Assembly: GCA_020635535.1 (NCBI GenBank)
Contig: JACJZP010000011.1
Coordinates: forward strand, 6,780-70,779
Direction: 5' to 3'
Length of the DNA stretch: 64,000 nucleotides
Source: Flavobacteriales bacterium
GTDB taxonomy: Bacteria > Bacteroidota > Bacteroidia > UBA10329
Of this stretch, positions 3,299 to 29,947 are shown piece by piece; the first letter of the stretch is position 1; each line of letters starts with the position of its first letter. The position numbers and the translations under genes are program-made. A model generated the notes under the pieces. It was not told the DNA's origin. It did no database searches and saw nothing but the letters and a program-made list of their open reading frames with translations.

Positions 3299-5749
3299 AT
3301 GAGAAGATCTCTATCCCCATTTCTTCTACTGTTGTTGCCGTTGTTTGCCTTTTCGCAAACGCAGTCCATTCGTGGTACCGTTACCGATCTTGAAAGCAAG
3401 ATTCCGATCATTGGGGCTGCCGTGGTTGTTCTTGGAAGCGATCCGATCATTGGAACTACAACCGACATTGACGGAAACTTCAAACTTGACAAGGTTGAGG
3501 TAGGTAGGGTTGATGTTCAGGTTACCTATCTGGGCTATTCTCCAAGAACCTTTTCAGGACTGGTCTTGCAAAGTGGCAAAGAGCTCGTGCTCAATGTACA
3601 GATGCAAGAAATGGTGATGAAGAAGGAAGAGGTTGTAGTAAAAGCCACCCGAAAGAAAGATGAGGTTCTAAATACCATGACCACTGTTTCTGCCCGAGTG
3701 TTCTCCACTGAAGAAGCATCGCGCTATGCGGGTACTCGAAATGACGTATCCCGAATGGCGACCAACTTCGCGGGGGTTCGTGGTGCGAATGATGCCACCA
3801 ATGATATCGTCATACGTGGTAACTCGCCAACGGGTCTGTTGTGGCGGTTGGAGGAAATAGACATTCCAAATCCTAACCACTTCGGTAATCTTGGGTCAAC
3901 AGGTGGTCCTGTGAGCATGCTCAATGCAAACGTACTTTCCAATTCAGACTTCCTTACGGGAGCGTTTCCATCTGAATACGGCAACGGGGTTTCTGGTGTT
4001 TTTGACCTGAAAATGCGCCATGGGAACAATGAGAAACATGAGTTCTTAGGACAGATCGGTTTCAATGGAGTAGAACTTGGTGCAGAAGGCCCATTCTCCA
4101 AGAAAAGTGGAGCTTCTTATCTGATCAATTTCCGCTACTCTACGCTGGCGTTGTTTGCGCTTGGCGGAGTGGATTTTGGTACGGGCGATGCCATCCCAGA
4201 ATACTCAGACGTCAGTTTCAAAGTGCGAATTCCTACCAAACATGCCGGAATCTTTGAAGCTTTCGGAATGGGAGGCATTAGCAGCATCGAGTTTCTGGCC
4301 AGCCAATCTGAAGATGACGCAAGCAATTTCTACACCCAAGGTGGCATTGATGTGTATGACAGGACGATGACAGGTGTTGCCGGTCTATCGCACACCTACC
4401 TTTTCAAGAACAACAGCTATTTGAAAACGGTAATTGCTGGAAGTACACAGCTTAATCAGGATGTGATCGATAGTGTAGATCTTAACAAGCATCCGTTCGA
4501 CTGGTACAAGCAGAATTTTCAAGACCATCGGTTTCAAGGGCTGATGTATTACAAGAAGAAGTTCAATGCCAAGCACAATCTTAAGGTCGGTAATAGAACC
4601 ACGGTCTTCTACTCCATTCTGCAAGACAGTGCTTTTATTCCCGATTGGAACGACTACCAAACGCTGACCGATTTTGATGGCGTAACGGCTCTGATCCAAC
4701 CTTTTGCCCAGTGGCAATGGCGATGGAACGACTCATGGACAATGAACACCGGTTTGCACGCACAGGTGTTGACATTGAATGGTTCGTACACCATTGAACC
4801 ACGCTGGGGATTGCGTTGGGCAGTTAACCCGCGTCATAAACTCTCGCTTGCTTATGGTCTGCACAGCCAGATGGTAGCCTTGGACAAGTACTTCCTTGTA
4901 ATGGAAGACTCCATTGGAAATCGTGAAATGCCCAACAAGAACCTCGACTTTGTGAAGAGCCATCATGTGGTTTTGGGCTATGATTGGAGCCTACCGTTCG
5001 ATATGCGATTGAAGCTGGAGGCTTACTACCAGTACATCTACGATGCTGGAATTGACAGTGACAGTTCATCATTCTCCACACTTAACATTGGAAGCTTCTC
5101 TCAAGACGGCCCCGATAATATTGTCAACGGAGGAGTGGGCACCAACTATGGTCTTGAACTTACATTCGAAAAGTTCCTCTCAAAAGGTTACTACTGGCTG
5201 CTTACAGCTTCTTTGTACGACTCAAAATACCGTGGGAGCGATGGTGTTTGGCGGAACACCGTCTTCAACGGTAATTATGTTGTGAATGTGCTTGGTGGAT
5301 ACGAATTGAACCTCAAGCGAAAGAACTTCAAGGTGAAAACACCACCTCCGCGTATTGAGCAGAAGGATAAGCGTTTGGCCCGCTGGAACAAGAAGCAGGA
5401 CAGAAAAAAGAACTCTCAGTATTCGTTGAAGTTCGATGCGAAATTCACCTTGGCAGGAGGCTCACGTTACACACCTATTGATATCAACGCATCGGCACTT
5501 GTCAAACGAGCAGTTTATGTAGATGAATCTGCCTATTCAAAGCAGTTTGAGCCTTACTATCGTTTAGACCTTAGCATGACTTTCAGAATGAGTAGTGGCC
5601 GAATTACGCAAGAATTCATGGCTTCTTGCCAGAATGTTACCGACAAGAAGAACCCGTTGTACAATCAGTACAACCCAGACCAGAACCGACTTGTTAACGT
5701 GAATCAGCTGGGAATTTACCCGCTTTTGCAGTACCGGATACTTTTCTGA
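3299..5749 (+). CDS. TonB-dependent outer-membrane receptor (CarboxypepD_reg-like N-domain + plug + barrel)
   Basis: Signal peptide, IRGTVTD CarbopepD_reg motif, plug motif NDIVIRGNSPTGLLWRLEEIDIPNPNHF, and C-terminal aromatic residue. Paralogue of the gene at 39913-42283. Confidence 0.8.
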   Translation: MRRSLSPFLLLLLPLFAFSQTQSIRGTVTDLESKIPIIGAAVVVLGSDPIIGTTTDIDGNFKLDKVEVGRVDVQVTYLGYSPRTFSGLVLQSGKELVLNVQMQEMVMKKEEVVVKATRKKDEVLNTMTTVSARVFSTEEASRYAGTRNDVSRMATNFAGVRGANDATNDIVIRGNSPTGLLWRLEEIDIPNPNHFGNLGSTGGPVSMLNANVLSNSDFLTGAFPSEYGNGVSGVFDLKMRHGNNEKHEFLGQIGFNGVELGAEGPFSKKSGASYLINFRYSTLALFALGGVDFGTGDAIPEYSDVSFKVRIPTKHAGIFEAFGMGGISSIEFLASQSEDDASNFYTQGGIDVYDRTMTGVAGLSHTYLFKNNSYLKTVIAGSTQLNQDVIDSVDLNKHPFDWYKQNFQDHRFQGLMYYKKKFNAKHNLKVGNRTTVFYSILQDSAFIPDWNDYQTLTDFDGVTALIQPFAQWQWRWNDSWTMNTGLHAQVLTLNGSYTIEPRWGLRWAVNPRHKLSLAYGLHSQMVALDKYFLVMEDSIGNREMPNKNLDFVKSHHVVLGYDWSLPFDMRLKLEAYYQYIYDAGIDSDSSSFSTLNIGSFSQDGPDNIVNGGVGTNYGLELTFEKFLSKGYYWLLTASLYDSKYRGSDGVWRNTVFNGNYVVNVLGGYELNLKRKNFKVKTPPPRIEQKDKRLARWNKKQDRKKNSQYSLKFDAKFTLAGGSRYTPIDINASALVKRAVYVDESAYSKQFEPYYRLDLSMTFRMSSGRITQEFMASCQNVTDKKNPLYNQYNPDQNRLVNVNQLGIYPLLQYRILF

Positions 5750-23749: not shown

Positions 23750-26146
23750 ATGGCTAAGAATGCAGAAGATGACGATCAATCTGCTCCACCTAAAGACATC
23801 AAAATGCGTTCAGATTTCTCTGAAACGGTGTTCTTCCATCCGCATTTGGTGAGCGATGAAAAGGGAAATGTCAGCTTCAAATTCAATGCACCACAATCAC
23901 TCACGCGATGGAAGTTCATGGGTCTCGCTACCACCGAAGACCTGAAGATCGGAACCATCACGGAAGAGGTCGTTACCCGCAAACAGTTGATGATAACGCC
24001 CAACTATCCGCGTTTCGTGCGGGAAGGCGATAAACTCATTTTCCAAGTAAAAGTGAACGTGTTGGATAGCTTGGTCAAGAGCGCTTCTGCTTCATTGGAA
24101 TTGACAGACGGATTAACTGGTGAGGCCATTGAATCTCAAATCGTTAATCGTCAATTGTTATTCGCTAATAATCAAGCGGTAGCTTCTTGGGAAATCGATA
24201 TTCCCGAAGGAATTTCCGCCATCAAGTTCACTACCAAAGCATGGTCAGACAAGCATTCGGATGGAGAGGAAAAAACCATTCCTGTGCTTCCGAACCGCAT
24301 GTTGGTGACTGAAAGCATGCCGCTTCCAGTCAGAGGAAAAGGCACGCACACCTTCAGTTTCGATAAGCTGTTAGGGCTTGATGCATCAAGACACAGCCAA
24401 ACGCTGCGTACACAATCGTTAACGTTGGAATTCACACCCAATCCGATCTGGCTGGCCGTGCTTTCGCTGCCGTACATGATGGAATACCCGTACGAATGTT
24501 CTGAGCAGATTTTCAGTCGCTACTACGCCAATGCCATCGGTACCCATCTGGCCAATTCCGACCCGAAGATCAAAGCGGTTTTCGAGCAATGGAAGCACGA
24601 TGCGCAGAACGGAAACGGGGATGCATTCCAATCTGAATTGGACAAGAATCCAGAACTGAAACAGGCTTTGCTGACTGAAACACCGTGGGTTCGAGATGCG
24701 CAGAACGAAACAGAACAACGCAGACGGATTGGTGAACTGTTCGATACCGACCGCATGGAAACCGAACTGCAAACGGCTCTCAAAAAACTGAAGCAGAACC
24801 AACAGCCCGATGGCGGTTGGGGCTGGTTCAACGGGCTGCGCTCCGATATGTACATCACACGTTACATCGTTTCAGGATTTGGCAAAATGCGCAAGATGGG
24901 CGTTTGGCAAATGGATGATGAAACCGAATCCATGCTTCGCGAAGCAATCGTTTTCCTCGATGAGGAAATGGTGAAATTCTACGCCCGCAGAGACCTGAAA
25001 GACAAGGATTACGTACCGAGTTGGACGGATTTGCATATGACCTACGCGCGGTCGTTCTGGTTGGATGATTTTGCGCTGAACGGCAAGGCGAAAACCACTT
25101 ACAACCTCATTGTAAAGAACATCCGCGATAAGTGGACGAAATTGGATGCTTCACAGAAAGGATTGGCGGCCGTGGTTCTGAAGCGTTCTGGATTTGAGGA
25201 TGACGCGAAAAAGGTCATCGTCTCGCTGCGCGAAACGGCACTAACAAGCGAGGAATTCGGCACGTATTGGGCCATGGACAAGGGCTATTACTGGTATCAG
25301 GCACCAATTGAAAACCACGTGATGATCTTGGAGGCGTTTGATGAGGTGGCCAATGATGCGGAAATGGTCCGCGAGATGAACATCTGGTTGCTCAAACAGA
25401 AACAGACGCAAAGTTGGGAAACCACCAAGGCCACGGCCGAAGCGTGCTACGCGCTGATCTCAACTGGCAACACCGACTTTGAAACTGAAGCGAAAGTTTC
25501 CATCAAGTTGGGTAATGAAACCATTGACCCACGCAAAGACCCAGACCTTAAGACCGAAGCCGGAACGGGTTACTTCAAGACCAATTGGACGAAGAATTCC
25601 GTGTACTCCGATATGGGAAATGTCACCGTGACCAAAGACAACGATGGCGTAGCATGGGGCGCGGTTTACTGGCAGTATTTCGAGGACTTGGATAAGATCA
25701 CAGGCGCTACCGACAATCCGATAAAAATGCAGCGGGAAGTCATGCTGTTGGAAGACACGGAGAACGGCCCTGTGATGAAACCGTTGGGAGAGAACACCTC
25801 ACTTTCTGTTGGCGACAGAGTTCGCGTTCGCATCGTTCTGGAAACCGACCGCCACATGGAATATGTGCATCTGAAAGACATGCGCGCTGCCAGTTTCGAA
25901 CCACGCAAGCAACTTTCTGGGGTAGAATTCCAAGAAGGGTTGAGCTACTACCGTTCGACTACTGATGCGGCCATGAACTTCTTCTTCAGCTACCTGCCCA
26001 AAGGCACGTTCGTGTTTGAGTACGACCTGAACGTAACCCAATCAGGCACCTTCAGCAACGGTATTTCCCAACTGCAATGCATGTACGTGCCTGAGTTTAC
26101 AACGCACTCTGAGGGAGTGAGGTTGGAGGTCAGAAGGAAACAATGA
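23750..26146 (+). CDS. alpha-2-macroglobulin family protein, bait/thioester-like/receptor-binding portion
   Basis: RSDFSETVFFHP...LTRWKF motif (A2M bait-region boundary). YPYECSEQ, the thioester-motif position with Ser in place of Gly. C-terminal A2M_recep-like region. Separated from the previous ORF by a frame break inside a GATGAT-repeat stretch. Confidence 0.8.
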   Translation: MAKNAEDDDQSAPPKDIKMRSDFSETVFFHPHLVSDEKGNVSFKFNAPQSLTRWKFMGLATTEDLKIGTITEEVVTRKQLMITPNYPRFVREGDKLIFQVKVNVLDSLVKSASASLELTDGLTGEAIESQIVNRQLLFANNQAVASWEIDIPEGISAIKFTTKAWSDKHSDGEEKTIPVLPNRMLVTESMPLPVRGKGTHTFSFDKLLGLDASRHSQTLRTQSLTLEFTPNPIWLAVLSLPYMMEYPYECSEQIFSRYYANAIGTHLANSDPKIKAVFEQWKHDAQNGNGDAFQSELDKNPELKQALLTETPWVRDAQNETEQRRRIGELFDTDRMETELQTALKKLKQNQQPDGGWGWFNGLRSDMYITRYIVSGFGKMRKMGVWQMDDETESMLREAIVFLDEEMVKFYARRDLKDKDYVPSWTDLHMTYARSFWLDDFALNGKAKTTYNLIVKNIRDKWTKLDASQKGLAAVVLKRSGFEDDAKKVIVSLRETALTSEEFGTYWAMDKGYYWYQAPIENHVMILEAFDEVANDAEMVREMNIWLLKQKQTQSWETTKATAEACYALISTGNTDFETEAKVSIKLGNETIDPRKDPDLKTEAGTGYFKTNWTKNSVYSDMGNVTVTKDNDGVAWGAVYWQYFEDLDKITGATDNPIKMQREVMLLEDTENGPVMKPLGENTSLSVGDRVRVRIVLETDRHMEYVHLKDMRAASFEPRKQLSGVEFQEGLSYYRSTTDAAMNFFFSYLPKGTFVFEYDLNVTQSGTFSNGISQLQCMYVPEFTTHSEGVRLEVRRKQ

Positions 26147-26198
26147 AAATGACGGAGAATCGTAAATTGACAATCGACTTCCACATATCCCGACTCAT

Positions 26199-26206
26199 TA
26201 AATTTG
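26199..26206 (+). promoter_or_regulatory. candidate Bacteroidota -7 promoter element (TAnnTTTG) for the lytS-lytTR operon
   Basis: TAAATTTG lies 26 nt upstream of the ATG at 26232. Confidence 0.3.
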
Positions 26207-26231
26207 TTTGAATTAACAAGTCAATTCAAAA

Positions 26232-26948
26232 ATGGATTTTCAGAACGTTGACCATCTACAGATCCTTTTGGTATTAGCGTTTGCACTTGCTGTTTGGTCT
26301 TATTTCAGCATGAAGAAGGAGCGAAAAAAAAGCGCGCGTCTACATGACGAAAACGCGCAGCTTTTAGCTCAAAACGCTATTCTCGAAGCTGAGCAATTGA
26401 AATTCCAGCTGCAACCACACACCCTGAATAATATTCTTGCTAATCTGAAGGCTGTTGCTTCGAAACTACACAGAGGAATGGATGCTCTCTCAGAAACACT
26501 CGAATACATCATTTATAAAGGCAAGGGACATTTGGTAACTGTTGAGGACGAACTTGTTTTTATACAGAGATACCTCATTTTGAACGAGCTGTTCTTAACT
26601 CACATGGACTCCATCAAATTAGACGACACACGGGTGAATGCGAACAGCGAATTTTACCGAAAACCATGTCTGCCTCACCTTGTCACGGGCTATCTCCTTG
26701 AGAACGCATTCAAACATGGTGATACACGTGACCCAAATTTCTTGTCGATTAGTGTGTGTCTAAGCGACCGGGTTTTTGAGCTTCAGGTCTCGAATAAAGT
26801 ACGGTCGGGGCACAGTAATCGCAACGGTGGTATTGGACTACAGAACATGAGAAAGCGATTAGACCTACTTGCCTCTGGCAGCTACGAGCTAAATCACCAA
26901 CAGACCGATTCGGAATACATTTCGACCCTGACAGTGAAATTGAAATGA
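26232..26948 (+). CDS. LytS/YehU-type sensor histidine kinase (His_kinase PF06580-like + HATPase), single TM helix, no extracytoplasmic domain
   Basis: QLQPHTLNNILANL H-box typical of LytS-family kinases, N/G boxes LENAFKHG...NGGIGLQNMRKRLDL, and one N-terminal TM segment. Confidence 0.8.
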   Translation: MDFQNVDHLQILLVLAFALAVWSYFSMKKERKKSARLHDENAQLLAQNAILEAEQLKFQLQPHTLNNILANLKAVASKLHRGMDALSETLEYIIYKGKGHLVTVEDELVFIQRYLILNELFLTHMDSIKLDDTRVNANSEFYRKPCLPHLVTGYLLENAFKHGDTRDPNFLSISVCLSDRVFELQVSNKVRSGHSNRNGGIGLQNMRKRLDLLASGSYELNHQQTDSEYISTLTVKLK

Positions 26949-27703
26949 GCAAATTGAAAGTTGCCGTTCTGGAAGATAGCCCGCTTCTACTTGAAGAGTT
27001 GCGGTATATGCTACGTGATACAAACCTTGTTGATGTAGTAGTTTGTAGTCAGAGTTGCGAGGAATTCATTCAGAAGGTTAAACAGACCAAGGTTGACGCG
27101 CTGATATTGGACATAGACATTGCGGGCGACAACATGAGCGGAATGGATGTAGCCTATCACTTAAAGTTACCTGTACTTTTCGCAAGCGGTAAGACCAAGG
27201 ACAATCTGGAAGGTATTGAAGATTTGACCTTAGAGGAATGGAGCATTGTTGAACACCTTACCAAACCAATAAAGAAGGAAAAACTCGAACGAATGCTTCC
27301 ACAGTTCATTGAACAAGTGCAAGCCAAGGCTCGTAAAAGTGTTGTCAGTCTGAGTCTGAAAGATGGCCGAACATTCGTTGTTCCGATGAATAGTGTTGCA
27401 TACATCTGCTCTTGCACAGGAAGTGACGGTCGGTCCTTGAATAAAGAAATTCATTTTGTAGACAGAAAACCTGGAATATTGGTTGATGTTTCCTTTCCTA
27501 AACTGGAATCTATCGGCTTCACCAGCACCCAGTTTATACGTCCTCATCAATCATACCGCGTGAACGTAGACCACGTGATGGAATACAATCGCCTCTATCA
27601 TAAACTTATTGTCTCTTCATTAAGCTCAGAAGGAAAGACTGTGCAATCCGAAATAGATGTTTCAGAAAACTACCGCTCAGAAATTAAGCAGAAGTTCAGG
27701 TAG
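26945..27703 (+). CDS. LytTR-family response regulator (REC + LytTR DNA-binding domain)
   Basis: VAVLEDS...ILDIDI receiver domain. C-terminal FIRPHQSYRVNVDHV is the LytTR signature (cf. FIRIHRSYIVN). ATGA-coupled to the kinase. Confidence 0.85.
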   Translation: MSKLKVAVLEDSPLLLEELRYMLRDTNLVDVVVCSQSCEEFIQKVKQTKVDALILDIDIAGDNMSGMDVAYHLKLPVLFASGKTKDNLEGIEDLTLEEWSIVEHLTKPIKKEKLERMLPQFIEQVQAKARKSVVSLSLKDGRTFVVPMNSVAYICSCTGSDGRSLNKEIHFVDRKPGILVDVSFPKLESIGFTSTQFIRPHQSYRVNVDHVMEYNRLYHKLIVSSLSSEGKTVQSEIDVSENYRSEIKQKFR

Positions 27704-27757
27704 GCACTTGTCACTCAAAACAAGGCACTTGTCACTCTGATGGGGATGATGTCACCC
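27702..27757 (+). promoter_or_regulatory. three direct repeats (AGGCACTTGTCACTC x2 plus degenerate ATGTCACCC) at 21/20-bp phasing; candidate LytTR operator upstream of the viperin gene
   Basis: Perfect 15-nt repeat at 27702-16 and 27723-37, with a third half-site at 27749-57. The 21-bp periodicity matches LytTR/AgrA-type direct-repeat sites. Confidence 0.4.
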
Positions 27758-27813
27758 GCAATTAGGTAACCTTTACCGACACTGGGACATTCGTTGAAAC
27801 AAAACTCAACGAT

Positions 27814-29205
27814 ATGATTCCATCAGTCAATTTTCACCTCTGGCAGCCCTGCAACATGGCCTGCAAATTCTGCTTCGCTCGCTTTGAGGATGTAAAGCGT
27901 AAGTTCAACCTTCCGAAAGGTCACCTCCCTGAGGAGGACGCCTTGGCCGTGGTCGATGAGCTGGCCGACATCGGCTTCGAGAAAATCACGTTCGCAGGCG
28001 GTGAACCAACGCTCTGCCCGTGGTTGGACAAGCTGATCGTCCGTGCAAAGGAGCGTGGCATGACCACCATGATTGTAACGAACGGGAGCCGTTTGGACGA
28101 ATCTACGCTACTCCAGTTCAAACCCCATCTCGATTGGATAGCCCTCAGCATCGACAGTCTTGATGCAGAGACAAATGCCCAATCTGGCCGAGTACTGAAA
28201 AGTTCGGGCGGCTCTCCCGATTACTTCAAGCTTGTGGATGCTATCAAGGCACATGGCTTTGGGCTGAAGATCAACACGGTCGTCCATAGCCTCAACATGG
28301 ACGAGTCCATGCACGAATTCATTCGACATGCGCGGCCAAAGCGATGGAAGCTGTTCCAAGTGCTTCCCATCGATGGGCAGAACAATGGAGCTGTCGAGCC
28401 GCTGCTCATCTCGTCAGAGCAATTTCTGGGGTTTGTTGACCGCCATGCCGACCTCAACGGAGTGACGGAGGTGATTCCGGAGACCAATGATGACATGCGT
28501 GGTTCCTATGCGATGGTGGATCCCTCCGGACGATTCTATGATAATGTGGATGGCCACCACCACTACAGCCGCCCAATCCTTGAACTCGGGGCCAGACTTG
28601 CTATTCAACAGATGCGCTATGATTTCAAGAAGTTCCTTGGAAGAAAGGGGCAATATGACTGGGTCATTGACCGCAGGGTGCCGGCTCGCATCACTCTGTC
28701 GGGCGAGGTGGCCTCGGGCAAGAGCAGTGTCGGCAGAAAACTGGCAGAGCGGCTAAAGTATCAGTTCTTTTCCATCGGAGACAAAACGAGGGAGTTGGCC
28801 GCAAAGGAGGGAATGAACATCGTTGAGTTCCAGCGGAGATGCCAATTGGATCCCTCGATGGACAGACAGATCGATTCCAAATTTTCAGAGGACTGCAATA
28901 GTCGCAATGGCCTGGTAGTGGATTACCGTCTTGGATTCCGATTCGTCCGCAATGCCTTCCATGTGTTCCTAAAAGTCTCACAGGAAAAGGCCATTGAAAG
29001 GCTGAACGGGGCCAAACGTGCCGGTGAGACGAGTGCTACCGTGAAGGAACGTAACGACTCTTTCAAGTGTCAGTTCATCAATGCCTATGGCGTAGACTAC
29101 ACAGCAGAGAAACACTATAATCTTGTACTCGATGCGGATGACTCCACTGTGGATGAACTCGTGAATCGGATACTTGAACAATTTAACCCAATTCCTAATC
29201 AATAA
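27814..29205 (+). CDS. prokaryotic viperin (radical-SAM, ddhNTP synthase-like) fused to a C-terminal cytidylate-kinase-like P-loop NMP kinase domain
   Basis: N-terminal NFHLWQPCNMACKFCF (CxxxCxxC), GGEPTL, and viperin-specific blocks (LSIDSLDAETN, GLKINTVVHSLNMDESMHEFIRHARPKRWKLFQVLPIDGQN, IPETNDDMRGSYAMVD, FLGRKGQYDW) that track human viperin. The last ~175 aa, RITLSGEVASGKSSVGRKLAERLKYQFFSIGD..., resemble Cmk/cytidylate_kin2. Confidence 0.85.
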   Translation: MIPSVNFHLWQPCNMACKFCFARFEDVKRKFNLPKGHLPEEDALAVVDELADIGFEKITFAGGEPTLCPWLDKLIVRAKERGMTTMIVTNGSRLDESTLLQFKPHLDWIALSIDSLDAETNAQSGRVLKSSGGSPDYFKLVDAIKAHGFGLKINTVVHSLNMDESMHEFIRHARPKRWKLFQVLPIDGQNNGAVEPLLISSEQFLGFVDRHADLNGVTEVIPETNDDMRGSYAMVDPSGRFYDNVDGHHHYSRPILELGARLAIQQMRYDFKKFLGRKGQYDWVIDRRVPARITLSGEVASGKSSVGRKLAERLKYQFFSIGDKTRELAAKEGMNIVEFQRRCQLDPSMDRQIDSKFSEDCNSRNGLVVDYRLGFRFVRNAFHVFLKVSQEKAIERLNGAKRAGETSATVKERNDSFKCQFINAYGVDYTAEKHYNLVLDADDSTVDELVNRILEQFNPIPNQ

Positions 29206-29221
29206 CCGACAAACACTCATC

Positions 29222-29947
29222 ATGAAAACACGAACCTTCTCAAATCGAACCATGAAATACGGAAATCGCCCTACGATTACTCCAGACCCATTGCTTGTTA
29301 GTAAAGCACTTGCCGTTTCGAATCGGCCAACTGGAATTAACAACTTCGTTGTCATTGCACGCTACAAATGGTTGGTAGCAAATGGGGCGATCTACCCCAA
29401 GCGCATGGAAAAGCCCAACCTATTCATAACCATAAATGATGGTATGGTGGAAGATTGTAAGTTCAGCTGTGTGTTTGGAAGAACGCTCCAAAAGCAGAGC
29501 TTCCATATTGAGGTTCTCAATGGTCCGTCAGAGACAAGTAGCGCGACTAAAGAAAATCTTATCCTTAGTAGAGACCTAGGACTGGCCAACCTATGCAACA
29601 TGGCTCTTGATGAATTCCGTGAAAGGGACATCATCCAACCTGTGTTCCCTCTGGATTTCAACACTTACGCTGATGACAGCTGCAACCTAAGTCTGAAGAC
29701 CCGTCCTTCAGACAAGGCTGTTCTGGAAATTCTTCGAGAAGCAGATGTGAACCATTGGGACAAGAACCTCATCATCATCGCCAGACAACGCTGGTTGAAG
29801 GAACAAGGGATTAAGATTCCGACTCAAACTGGAAACCTGAATCTGTTGGTCAAGATTGTCAACGGCCATTTGACCAGCTGCTTCTACAGTCCTGATATGA
29901 TGAACATCATAAGAAAACAGAACTACTTCATTCAAATCCTGAATTGA
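29222..29947 (+). CDS. hypothetical protein with two tandem homologous ~110-aa repeats (unknown function)
   Basis: Starts 16 nt after the viperin-kinase stop. The internal duplication is visible by eye (NNFVVIARYKWLVANG...LFITINDGMVEDCKFS versus KNLIIIARQRWLKEQG...LLVKIVNGHLTSCFYS). Confidence 0.5.
   Translation: MKTRTFSNRTMKYGNRPTITPDPLLVSKALAVSNRPTGINNFVVIARYKWLVANGAIYPKRMEKPNLFITINDGMVEDCKFSCVFGRTLQKQSFHIEVLNGPSETSSATKENLILSRDLGLANLCNMALDEFRERDIIQPVFPLDFNTYADDSCNLSLKTRPSDKAVLEILREADVNHWDKNLIIIARQRWLKEQGIKIPTQTGNLNLLVKIVNGHLTSCFYSPDMMNIIRKQNYFIQILN

Follow-up and report, generated by a model that had tools for sequence, protein, structure and literature searches.

Three phased direct repeats as the probable operator of a LytTR regulator beside a viperin gene in Bacteroidota

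Viperin makes chain-terminating nucleotides, which raises the question of how bacteria restrain such an enzyme when it is not required; the prokaryotic viperins tested by Bernheim in 2021 were reportedly expressed from artificial promoters. The LytTR regulators AgrA, ComE and PlnC activate transcription from pairs of imperfect direct repeats that lie about 21 nucleotides (nt) apart, centre to centre, beside the -35 element. LytTR operators comprise two 9-11-nt repeats with an 11-13-nt spacer and share no common consensus, and Escherichia coli YpdB binds its distal site with high and its proximal site with low affinity (PMC4847170). Here we analyzed a stretch of 64,000 nt from a metagenome-assembled genome of a Flavobacteriales bacterium (GenBank assembly GCA_020635535.1, contig JACJZP010000011.1, positions 6,780 to 70,779 of the forward strand; hereafter the window), in which three direct repeats stand between a gene pair for a small histidine kinase and a LytTR response regulator, on one side, and a viperin gene on the other. 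Comparison with related loci makes it quite probable that these repeats form the operator of the adjacent regulator, placed at an activator-dependent promoter.

The regulator belongs to a small family, which was collected by protein search. By looking up gene context and scanning contigs from metagenomes and GTDB genomes, we assembled about 70 related loci (cited below by L numbers), all from Bacteroidota and including Saprospiraceae, Crocinitomicaceae, Flavobacteriales, Cytophagales, Sphingobacteriales and Draconibacterium; regulator identity across these loci is 30-72%, and some 45 of the relatives are drawn from at least six Bacteroidota lineages. The 170 nt 3' of each regulator stop codon were compared, revealing a near-uniform layout in almost all loci.

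Three phased repeats behind the regulator gene

The first-pass annotation of the window had reported two perfect copies of AGGCACTTGTCACTC, at 27702-27716 and 27723-27737 (21 nt start to start), and both were found without a mismatch. This pair is the sole exact direct repeat of at least 13 nt at lags of 15-40 in the 64-kilobase (kb) window; a 15-mer repeat is expected by chance 0.004 times per shuffled window, or 0.0016 times by analytic calculation. There are no further copies of AGGCACTTGTCACTC in the window at up to two mismatches, and the two copies at three mismatches compare with 1.58 expected. The degenerate third copy noted earlier (ATGTCACCC, 27749-27757) is weak when taken alone, and the 8-mer at its core, TGTCACYC, occurs five times in the window against 4.2 expected; the copy is borne out by the related loci, 45 of 47 of which carry a repeat 20 nt after the second one.

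The outline of the array was refined by this comparison. The periodicity first given as 21, 21 and 20 nt becomes two intervals, of 21 and then 20 nt, and the repeat unit is set at 14 nt. Likewise, the array does start at the regulator stop codon, as first described, and it ends 56 nt, rather than about 57 nt, before the viperin ATG (27814). In the window the layout is TAG GCACTTGTCACTC aaaacaa GGCACTTGTCACTC tgatgg GGATGATGTCACCC, the first repeat beginning on the final base of the regulator TAG stop codon (27701-27703). We designate the repeats R1 (GGCACTTGTCACTC, 27703..27716), R2 (GGCACTTGTCACTC, 27724..27737, 21 nt after R1) and R3 (GGATGATGTCACCC, 27744..27757, 20 nt after R2); relative to the transcription start predicted below, they lie at about -95 to -82, -74 to -61 and -54 to -41, respectively, and like the other window features described here they are given on the + strand. 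R1, the promoter-distal repeat, is the best conserved and R3 is the weakest copy, with an information content across loci that declines from 17.9 bits (R1) to 15.1 bits (R2) and 13.2 bits (R3). The spacer between R1 and R2 holds an A-tract (AAAA, 27717..27720), and A is found at each of spacer positions 2-5 in 38-42 of 45 loci; this tract may be an intrinsic bend that aids cooperative binding. In contrast, the R2-R3 spacer is not conserved across loci.

The geometry of the array is strict. In a matrix search that left each interval free within 19-23 nt, 47 non-redundant loci scored above 15 bits and were counted, and 45 of them carry three 14-nt direct repeats at exactly 21 and then 20 nt, starting from the regulator stop codon. 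Self-similarity of the first 80 nt past the stop codon also peaks at lags 20-21 (0.38-0.40 versus about 0.27), and 34 of 53 non-redundant loci have their maximum at one of these two lags. Moreover, the 21/20 geometry is kept across regulators that are only 30-48% identical. The consensus repeat of the family is cGCTTTCATTaCTC; the repeat has drifted to GGCACTTGTCACTC in the clade of the window (L001, L002 and L005) and is intermediate in L003 and L071 (CTTATTAC).

The triple site is confined to one type of location. When 886 kb (the loci and the window) were scanned on both strands at fixed 21/20 offsets, 59 triple sites were found, 58 of them directly past a regulator stop codon and one about 90 nt past it, in L063, where it still lies between the regulator and viperin genes; there were none elsewhere. 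All 59 are therefore situated between regulator and cargo, which is not the behavior of the generic scattered repeat that the first-pass annotation had named as the outcome that would speak against an operator. A generic dispersed repeat was rejected for this reason and for the lack of copies with two or fewer mismatches in the window. The cargo itself varies. Viperin follows the regulator in 46 of the 63 loci with readable downstream DNA, and the repeats are kept where the cargo is a small unknown protein (L003, L033, L044, L047 and L074) or a TauD-family dioxygenase (L071 and L072). The repeats follow the kinase-regulator pair, not the cargo.

In permutation tests, the three repeats of one locus resembled one another more closely than they did those of other loci (p <= 0.0002 for each of the three pairs). 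Next to the most distant regulators (34-36% identity), the repeat sequences are unrelated and retain the same 20-21-nt spacing after the stop codon. L053, for instance, has AATTCGGT at 4786 and 4807, followed by AATTCAGT at 4827 (feature span 4786-4846), and a direct pattern search of L075 gave ATTCTGCA at 4776 and 4796, followed by ATGCTGCA at 4816, with 20/20 spacing (span 4776-4823). L075 seems to retain only a remnant of the viperin start (ATGATAACAACAGTCAATTTTCAC) and no intact viperin open reading frame (ORF). The motif thus changes along with the regulator but the geometry does not, which is the pattern expected of an operator and its own regulator.

Promoter-like elements and a hairpin at the viperin start codon

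Across loci, 55-68 nt, most often 56, separate the end of R3 from the start codon of the next gene. A sigma-70 promoter scan gave nothing relevant here; sigma-70 is the wrong model for Bacteroidota, and the Bacteroidetes -33/-7 consensus was used instead (PMC6847099). In Flavobacterium johnsoniae this consensus is TTTG at -33 and TAHHTTTG at -7, with T-12, A-11, T-8, T-7, T-6 and G-5 near-invariant (PMC6847099). The window contains a candidate -33 element, ATTAG (27761..27765; TTAG versus the consensus TTTG), 3 nt after R3, and a candidate weak -7 box, GACATTCG (27786..27793), 20 nt after ATTAG. We compared these elements, and the hairpin described below, in 36 loci. ATTAG stands at the same fixed offset, 3 nt past R3, in 23 of the 36, and nTTAG or AATAG in most others. 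In the 8-mer 20 nt past it, T-7 is present in all 36 loci, T-8 and G-5 in 34 each, T-6 in 33 and A-11 in 31, while T-12 is found in only 4. The whole series of R3, 3 nt, ATTAG, 20 nt and nAHHTTTG aligns across the 36 loci without gaps, and the combination of rigid distances with variable sequence in between is typical of a promoter spacer. We read the pair of ATTAG and GACATTCG as a deliberately weak, activator-dependent promoter, which fits this conservation pattern. Transcription is predicted to start at 27798, 5 nt after G-5 (rule from PMC6847099), giving predicted leaders of 15-28 nt across loci.

On the + strand no intrinsic terminator was detected in 27600-27900, that is, between the regulator and viperin genes, and kinase-regulator transcripts should therefore read through into the viperin gene. 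The read-through RNA is predicted to form a hairpin at 27783..27822 (core arms 27788-27797 and 27806-27816), in which the region of the -7 box, where the 5' arm starts, pairs with the viperin start codon. Its folding energy is -13.9 kcal/mol (z -4.47), and none of 200 shuffled sequences was equally stable; the hairpin is conserved in related loci, with a mean z of -2.8 over the 36. The hairpin leads into coding sequence, without a U-tract. RNA that begins at 27798 is predicted to be unstructured (-1.8 kcal/mol).

The arms of this hairpin vary by locus (TTTGCTT/AAGCAAA, TTGTGT/ACACAA and GCTTCGG/CCGAAGC, with CGTTGA/TCAACG in the window). In a register-free arm-swap test, cognate arms paired at a mean of -7.1 kcal/mol versus -3.5 kcal/mol for swapped arms (p 2e-11). 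When the register was held fixed, 69% of cells were paired compared with 41-49% when the arms were slid, and we regard the arm-swap test as more informative than this fixed-register count. Moreover, the segment from -3 to the AUG had a median pairing probability of 0.94 when the RNA came from read-through and of 0.43 when it began at the predicted start (p 5e-8). These data suggest that the hairpin may silence only the read-through transcripts that come from the kinase-regulator promoter, a suggestion for which we see the chances as about even.

The proposed switch and its rivals

All computable predictions of the operator proposal held, namely those on conservation, linkage, co-variation, specificity, the spacing rule and the geometry of the promoter-like pair, and the related loci thus speak for the function that had been suggested from the window by itself. 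The likeness to LytTR direct-repeat periodicity, on which that suggestion was based, also held: the 21/20 period fits the published rule (PMC4847170), with a longer unit of 14 nt and three copies.

Taken together, these features suggest the following switch. The small membrane kinase would phosphorylate the regulator on D56, and regulator molecules would then fill R1, R2 and R3 head to tail, on sites that face the same side of the helix at intervals of two turns. R1 would be the strongest site and R3 the weakest, so that filling would proceed cooperatively toward the promoter, and the A-tract between R1 and R2 may assist bending. The bound regulator would recruit RNA polymerase to the weak promoter that begins 3 nt past R3 (TTAG, 20 nt, GACATTCG), and from about 27798 both the viperin-kinase gene and the ORF that follows would be transcribed. 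The hairpin would provide a second and less certain lock, wherein read-through RNA carries the -7 box arm, whose pairing with the viperin start codon would prevent translation. RNA made from the regulated promoter would lack this 5' arm and would be translatable.

Several observations weigh against this model or weaken its support. The window repeats score low on the family matrix (8.2, 8.2 and 3.3 bits for R1, R2 and R3), because the clade of the window has diverged. The window box GACATTCG keeps A-11, T-8, T-7 and G-5, and lacks both T-12 and T-6. Conservation of TTTG could reflect a hairpin arm complementary to CAAAUG instead of a promoter; moreover, the GC-rich loci L013 and L037 keep the hairpin without TTTG. 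Fixed-register covariation of the hairpin is modest, with 26 of 500 shuffles reaching the observed score, because bulges shift the register in about one-third of loci. In addition, the scan of 886 kb found no triple site upstream of the kinase in any locus, unlike the autoregulated agr and com systems. The loci share descent and are not independent samples, so the p-values given above (<= 0.0002, 2e-11 and 5e-8) are optimistic, and the case for the operator as a whole rests on sequence comparison.

Of the other explanations for the repeats, the one that survives best is that the regulator binds them as a repressor or roadblock, either stopping read-through or occluding an upstream promoter, and that viperin is switched on when the regulator leaves. 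The direction of regulation is not readable from sequence alone, and the repeats do start at the regulator stop codon, in the path of read-through transcription and with no terminator in between. However, R1 to R3 are all placed before the -33-like element, clear of both the -7 box and the predicted start. The rigid spacing between operator and promoter is typical of activation, and the -7 box systematically lacks T-12, a base near-invariant in housekeeping promoters (PMC6847099), as activator-dependent promoters do. In addition, LytTR regulators characterised with this arrangement, for example YpdB, activate transcription (PMC4847170). We therefore consider repression unlikely.

Binding by a different protein is less probable still. 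One candidate would be the XRE-type helix-turn-helix (HTH) regulator of many related islands, whose gene is found downstream in 11 loci (family F6), and the adjacency of the LytTR gene would then be incidental. XRE dimers usually bind inverted repeats, in contrast to the three direct repeats at 21/20 nt found here. Furthermore, the window cassette and L002 keep the repeats without any XRE gene, the repeats always accompany the kinase-regulator pair, and both their spacing and their motif match LytTR operators.

We give slightly less credence again to a site of recombination or cassette exchange, or a scar left by local duplication, at which the cargo is swapped. The gene directly downstream does differ between loci, as this would require. 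However, the swap point is the start codon, about 56 nt past R3, given that promoter-like elements and hairpin accompany every cargo; the cassettes contain no integrase or recombinase, and the 21/20 geometry, which a scar would be expected to lose, has held across regulators of 30-48% identity. Least credible of all is an RNA-level element (the 3' untranslated region or leader of a read-through transcript) or a functionless product of chance or slippage: read-through probably does transcribe the region and the 8-nt core shows no enrichment in the window by itself, but the repeat region folds like its shuffles (z 0.13), Rfam 15 gave no match (the only hit, snoU13 at E 0.51 and 16 bits versus a 46-bit cut-off, is a chance match), and the repeat expectation together with conservation in about 45 loci excludes chance.

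Activation from an operator at R1 to R3 thus remains our preferred explanation, and it invites a wider proposal that we advance tentatively, with doubt slightly ahead of confidence. The kinase-regulator pair, operator, weak promoter and hairpin may constitute a portable and tightly closed sense-and-induce cassette of Bacteroidota, with viperin as its usual payload and the start codon as the point at which others are exchanged for it. In that case bacterial viperin would be a signal-induced antiviral gene, with the one-helix kinase sensing infection or envelope stress. If this is true, signal-induced bacterial viperin would be a functional counterpart of the interferon-induced viperin of animals. 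The locus and its approximately 45 relatives suggest a concrete answer to how viperin is restrained, namely a dedicated two-component switch with an operator predicted to base resolution. The signal sensed by the kinase may be an infection cue, and operator and regulator together offer a handle for finding it. To our knowledge, LytTR regulators are abundant in Bacteroidota but largely uncharacterised, and the comparison defines for this phylum a putative LytTR operator of strict geometry. A promoter element that doubles as the arm of an anti-read-through hairpin is a possible design principle, of use for annotation and for tight expression systems in Bacteroidota.

The cassette and its described relatives

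Pfam and PADLOC agreed with the first-pass calls of the kinase, regulator and viperin genes. The histidine kinase (26232..26948, 238 amino acids) has a LytS/YehU-type His_kinase domain (PF06580, E 1.5e-9) and a single N-terminal hydrophobic membrane helix, and lacks a sensor domain, including the multi-pass one of LytS-type kinases. It is kept upstream of the regulator in 51 loci, with a median length of 237 amino acids, and its stop codon overlaps the regulator start at 26945-26948. A perfect Bacteroidetes -7 box (TAAATTTG, 26199..26206), which matches TAHHTTTG with G at -5 (PMC6847099), lies 25 nt upstream of the kinase ATG, unlike the imperfect box that precedes viperin, and is likely the constitutive promoter of the kinase-regulator operon, which does not appear to be autoregulated through the repeat motif. 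The regulator (26945..27703, 252 amino acids) combines REC (PF00072, 39.8 bits) and LytTR (PF04397, 27.6 bits versus a cut-off of 22.6) domains, both above cut-off, and the signature FxRxHxSxxVN is seen in regulator sequences. Among solved structures the family profile best matched ComE (4cbv, E 1.4e-7), and it also matched the LytTR domain of AgrA (3bs1, E 0.008). With E. coli YpdB/PyrR, hhalign gave an end-to-end alignment (probability 97.9%) that places D56 of the regulator opposite D53 of YpdB. D53 is the phospho-acceptor of YpdB (PMC4847170), and D56 is the predicted phospho-acceptor here.

The viperin gene (27814..29205, 463 amino acids) encodes a radical SAM viperin fused to a cytidylate-kinase-like domain. 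It fits the PADLOC models pVip-kinase (PDLC02905, E 6.8e-169) and PDLC02903 (E 2.7e-87) as well as Pfam Radical_SAM and Cytidylate_kin2, and its CxxxCxxC motif reads CNMACKFC (residues 13-20). An ORF of 241 amino acids (29222..29947, a gene call) begins 16 nt past the viperin gene, probably in the same operon, and has a homolog of 77% identity in L002. It has no Pfam or PADLOC match and is an internal duplication, with halves 32% identical over 60 amino acids (E 1e-10). Single-copy relatives of 100 amino acids sit after a TauD dioxygenase gene and a GRDP-like gene in L071 and L072.

In the kinase and regulator genes (window 26000-27500) the guanine plus cytosine (G+C) content is 42-44%, compared with about 50% in the alpha-2-macroglobulin and thiolase genes that flank them, and in L002 the same four-gene cassette adjoins HicAB. 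Both observations are consistent with a horizontally moved cassette. A phage or prophage origin was rejected, since IMG/VR gave no relative of the regulator.

Two alternative cargoes recur. In L069 (1557-3043), L071 (865-2387) and L072 (4862-6381), a TauD-family dioxygenase, a GRDP-like protein and a protein like the 241-amino-acid ORF product replace viperin behind the module. The second is a family of about 101 amino acids with the motif KTEHFLxRQWxR. It is the commonest second gene after viperin (L007, L009, L011, L018, L021, L025, L042, L048 and L061) and stands first behind the operator in viperin-less loci (L003, 6880-7200; L033, 4878-5204; L044, 2383-2648); it is often followed by genes for an 83-amino-acid protein, an XRE HTH regulator and small lipoproteins. 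The alternative cargo genes have no PADLOC hit, and among them Pfam recognised only the TauD dioxygenase (E 2.6e-17) and the GRDP-like domain in L071, with nothing significant in the rest.

For the hairpin, the closest precedent we know is the fold-back inhibition of read-through transcripts of the IS10 transposase gene, reportedly described by Davis, Simons and Kleckner in 1985. In IS10, as predicted for the window, the gene's own promoter starts transcription within the hairpin, so that only transcripts from outside carry both arms and have a sequestered start codon. They differ in that IS10 concerns a transposon gene, whereas in our locus a regulated defence gene would be controlled, the 5' arm is the -7 box and the mechanism is proposed from sequence.

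The repeat periodicity of about 21 nt is also used by AgrA (at P2/P3), ComE and PlnC of Gram-positive quorum-sensing systems, and ComE is the best solved-structure match to the family of the window regulator. However, those systems are autoregulated and driven by peptides, while the window has no operator upstream of the kinase and no peptide gene. They also belong to another phylum and promoter type, and the window has three sites at a strict 21/20 spacing.

YpdB of E. coli shares more with the window regulator. The two have the same REC plus LytTR architecture, and the operator through which YpdA/YpdB acts, in the yhjX promoter, consists of direct repeats with a 21-nt period that immediately precede the target promoter. 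The order of affinities in YpdB, high at the distal and low at the proximal site, parallels the conservation gradient from R1 through R2 to R3. The YpdB site GGCATTTCATTCC also resembles the family consensus GCTTTCATT(A/C)C (GCTTTCATTaC), from which the window clade has diverged to CACTTGTCAC. When the family matrix was run on the published yhjX oligonucleotide, its three best matches fell at 8, 29 and 50, in 21-nt phase and on the YpdB sites. The oligonucleotide (PMC4847170) holds a third, degenerate copy (GTCATTCATTCC), with a TCATTCC core 21 nt upstream of the core of site A, and the yhjX promoter may thus also have three phased sites. On the other hand, YpdB has only 20% protein identity to the window regulator. 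YpdA is a large multi-pass sensor kinase, in contrast to the one-helix window kinase without a sensor domain; the target of YpdB is a transporter rather than a defence gene; and two sites are described for YpdB, compared with three in the window locus, at a candidate promoter of the Bacteroidetes -33/-7 type. The window operator itself is, as judged from its sequence features, a predicted new member of the LytTR operator class.

Prokaryotic viperins (pVip; Bernheim et al. 2021, as cited in PMC10865869) are the other point of comparison. With its fit to the PADLOC viperin and viperin-kinase models and its CxxxCxxC motif, the window gene is classed by domain and motif as a putative pVip defence gene. 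In the literature searched, no paper joins viperin and LytTR, and viperin with LytR returned unrelated animal papers only; searches for pVip with histidine kinase or response regulator gave nothing relevant, although the primary pVip paper may mention such neighbors. A dedicated two-component switch for viperin thus appears undescribed in that literature, in which we likewise found no description of the whole arrangement of minimal kinase-regulator pair, three-site operator and possible dual promoter/hairpin element. Transcriptional control of a defence effector by a kinase and response regulator of the same cluster has been proposed for Ambrosia (bioRxiv 10.1101/2025.09.30.679545). There the regulator is of the winged-helix type, the effectors are restriction-modification-like and the host is Gammaproteobacterial, and no operator is defined for Ambrosia, whereas the window combines a LytTR regulator and a viperin effector with an operator that can be predicted down to the base.

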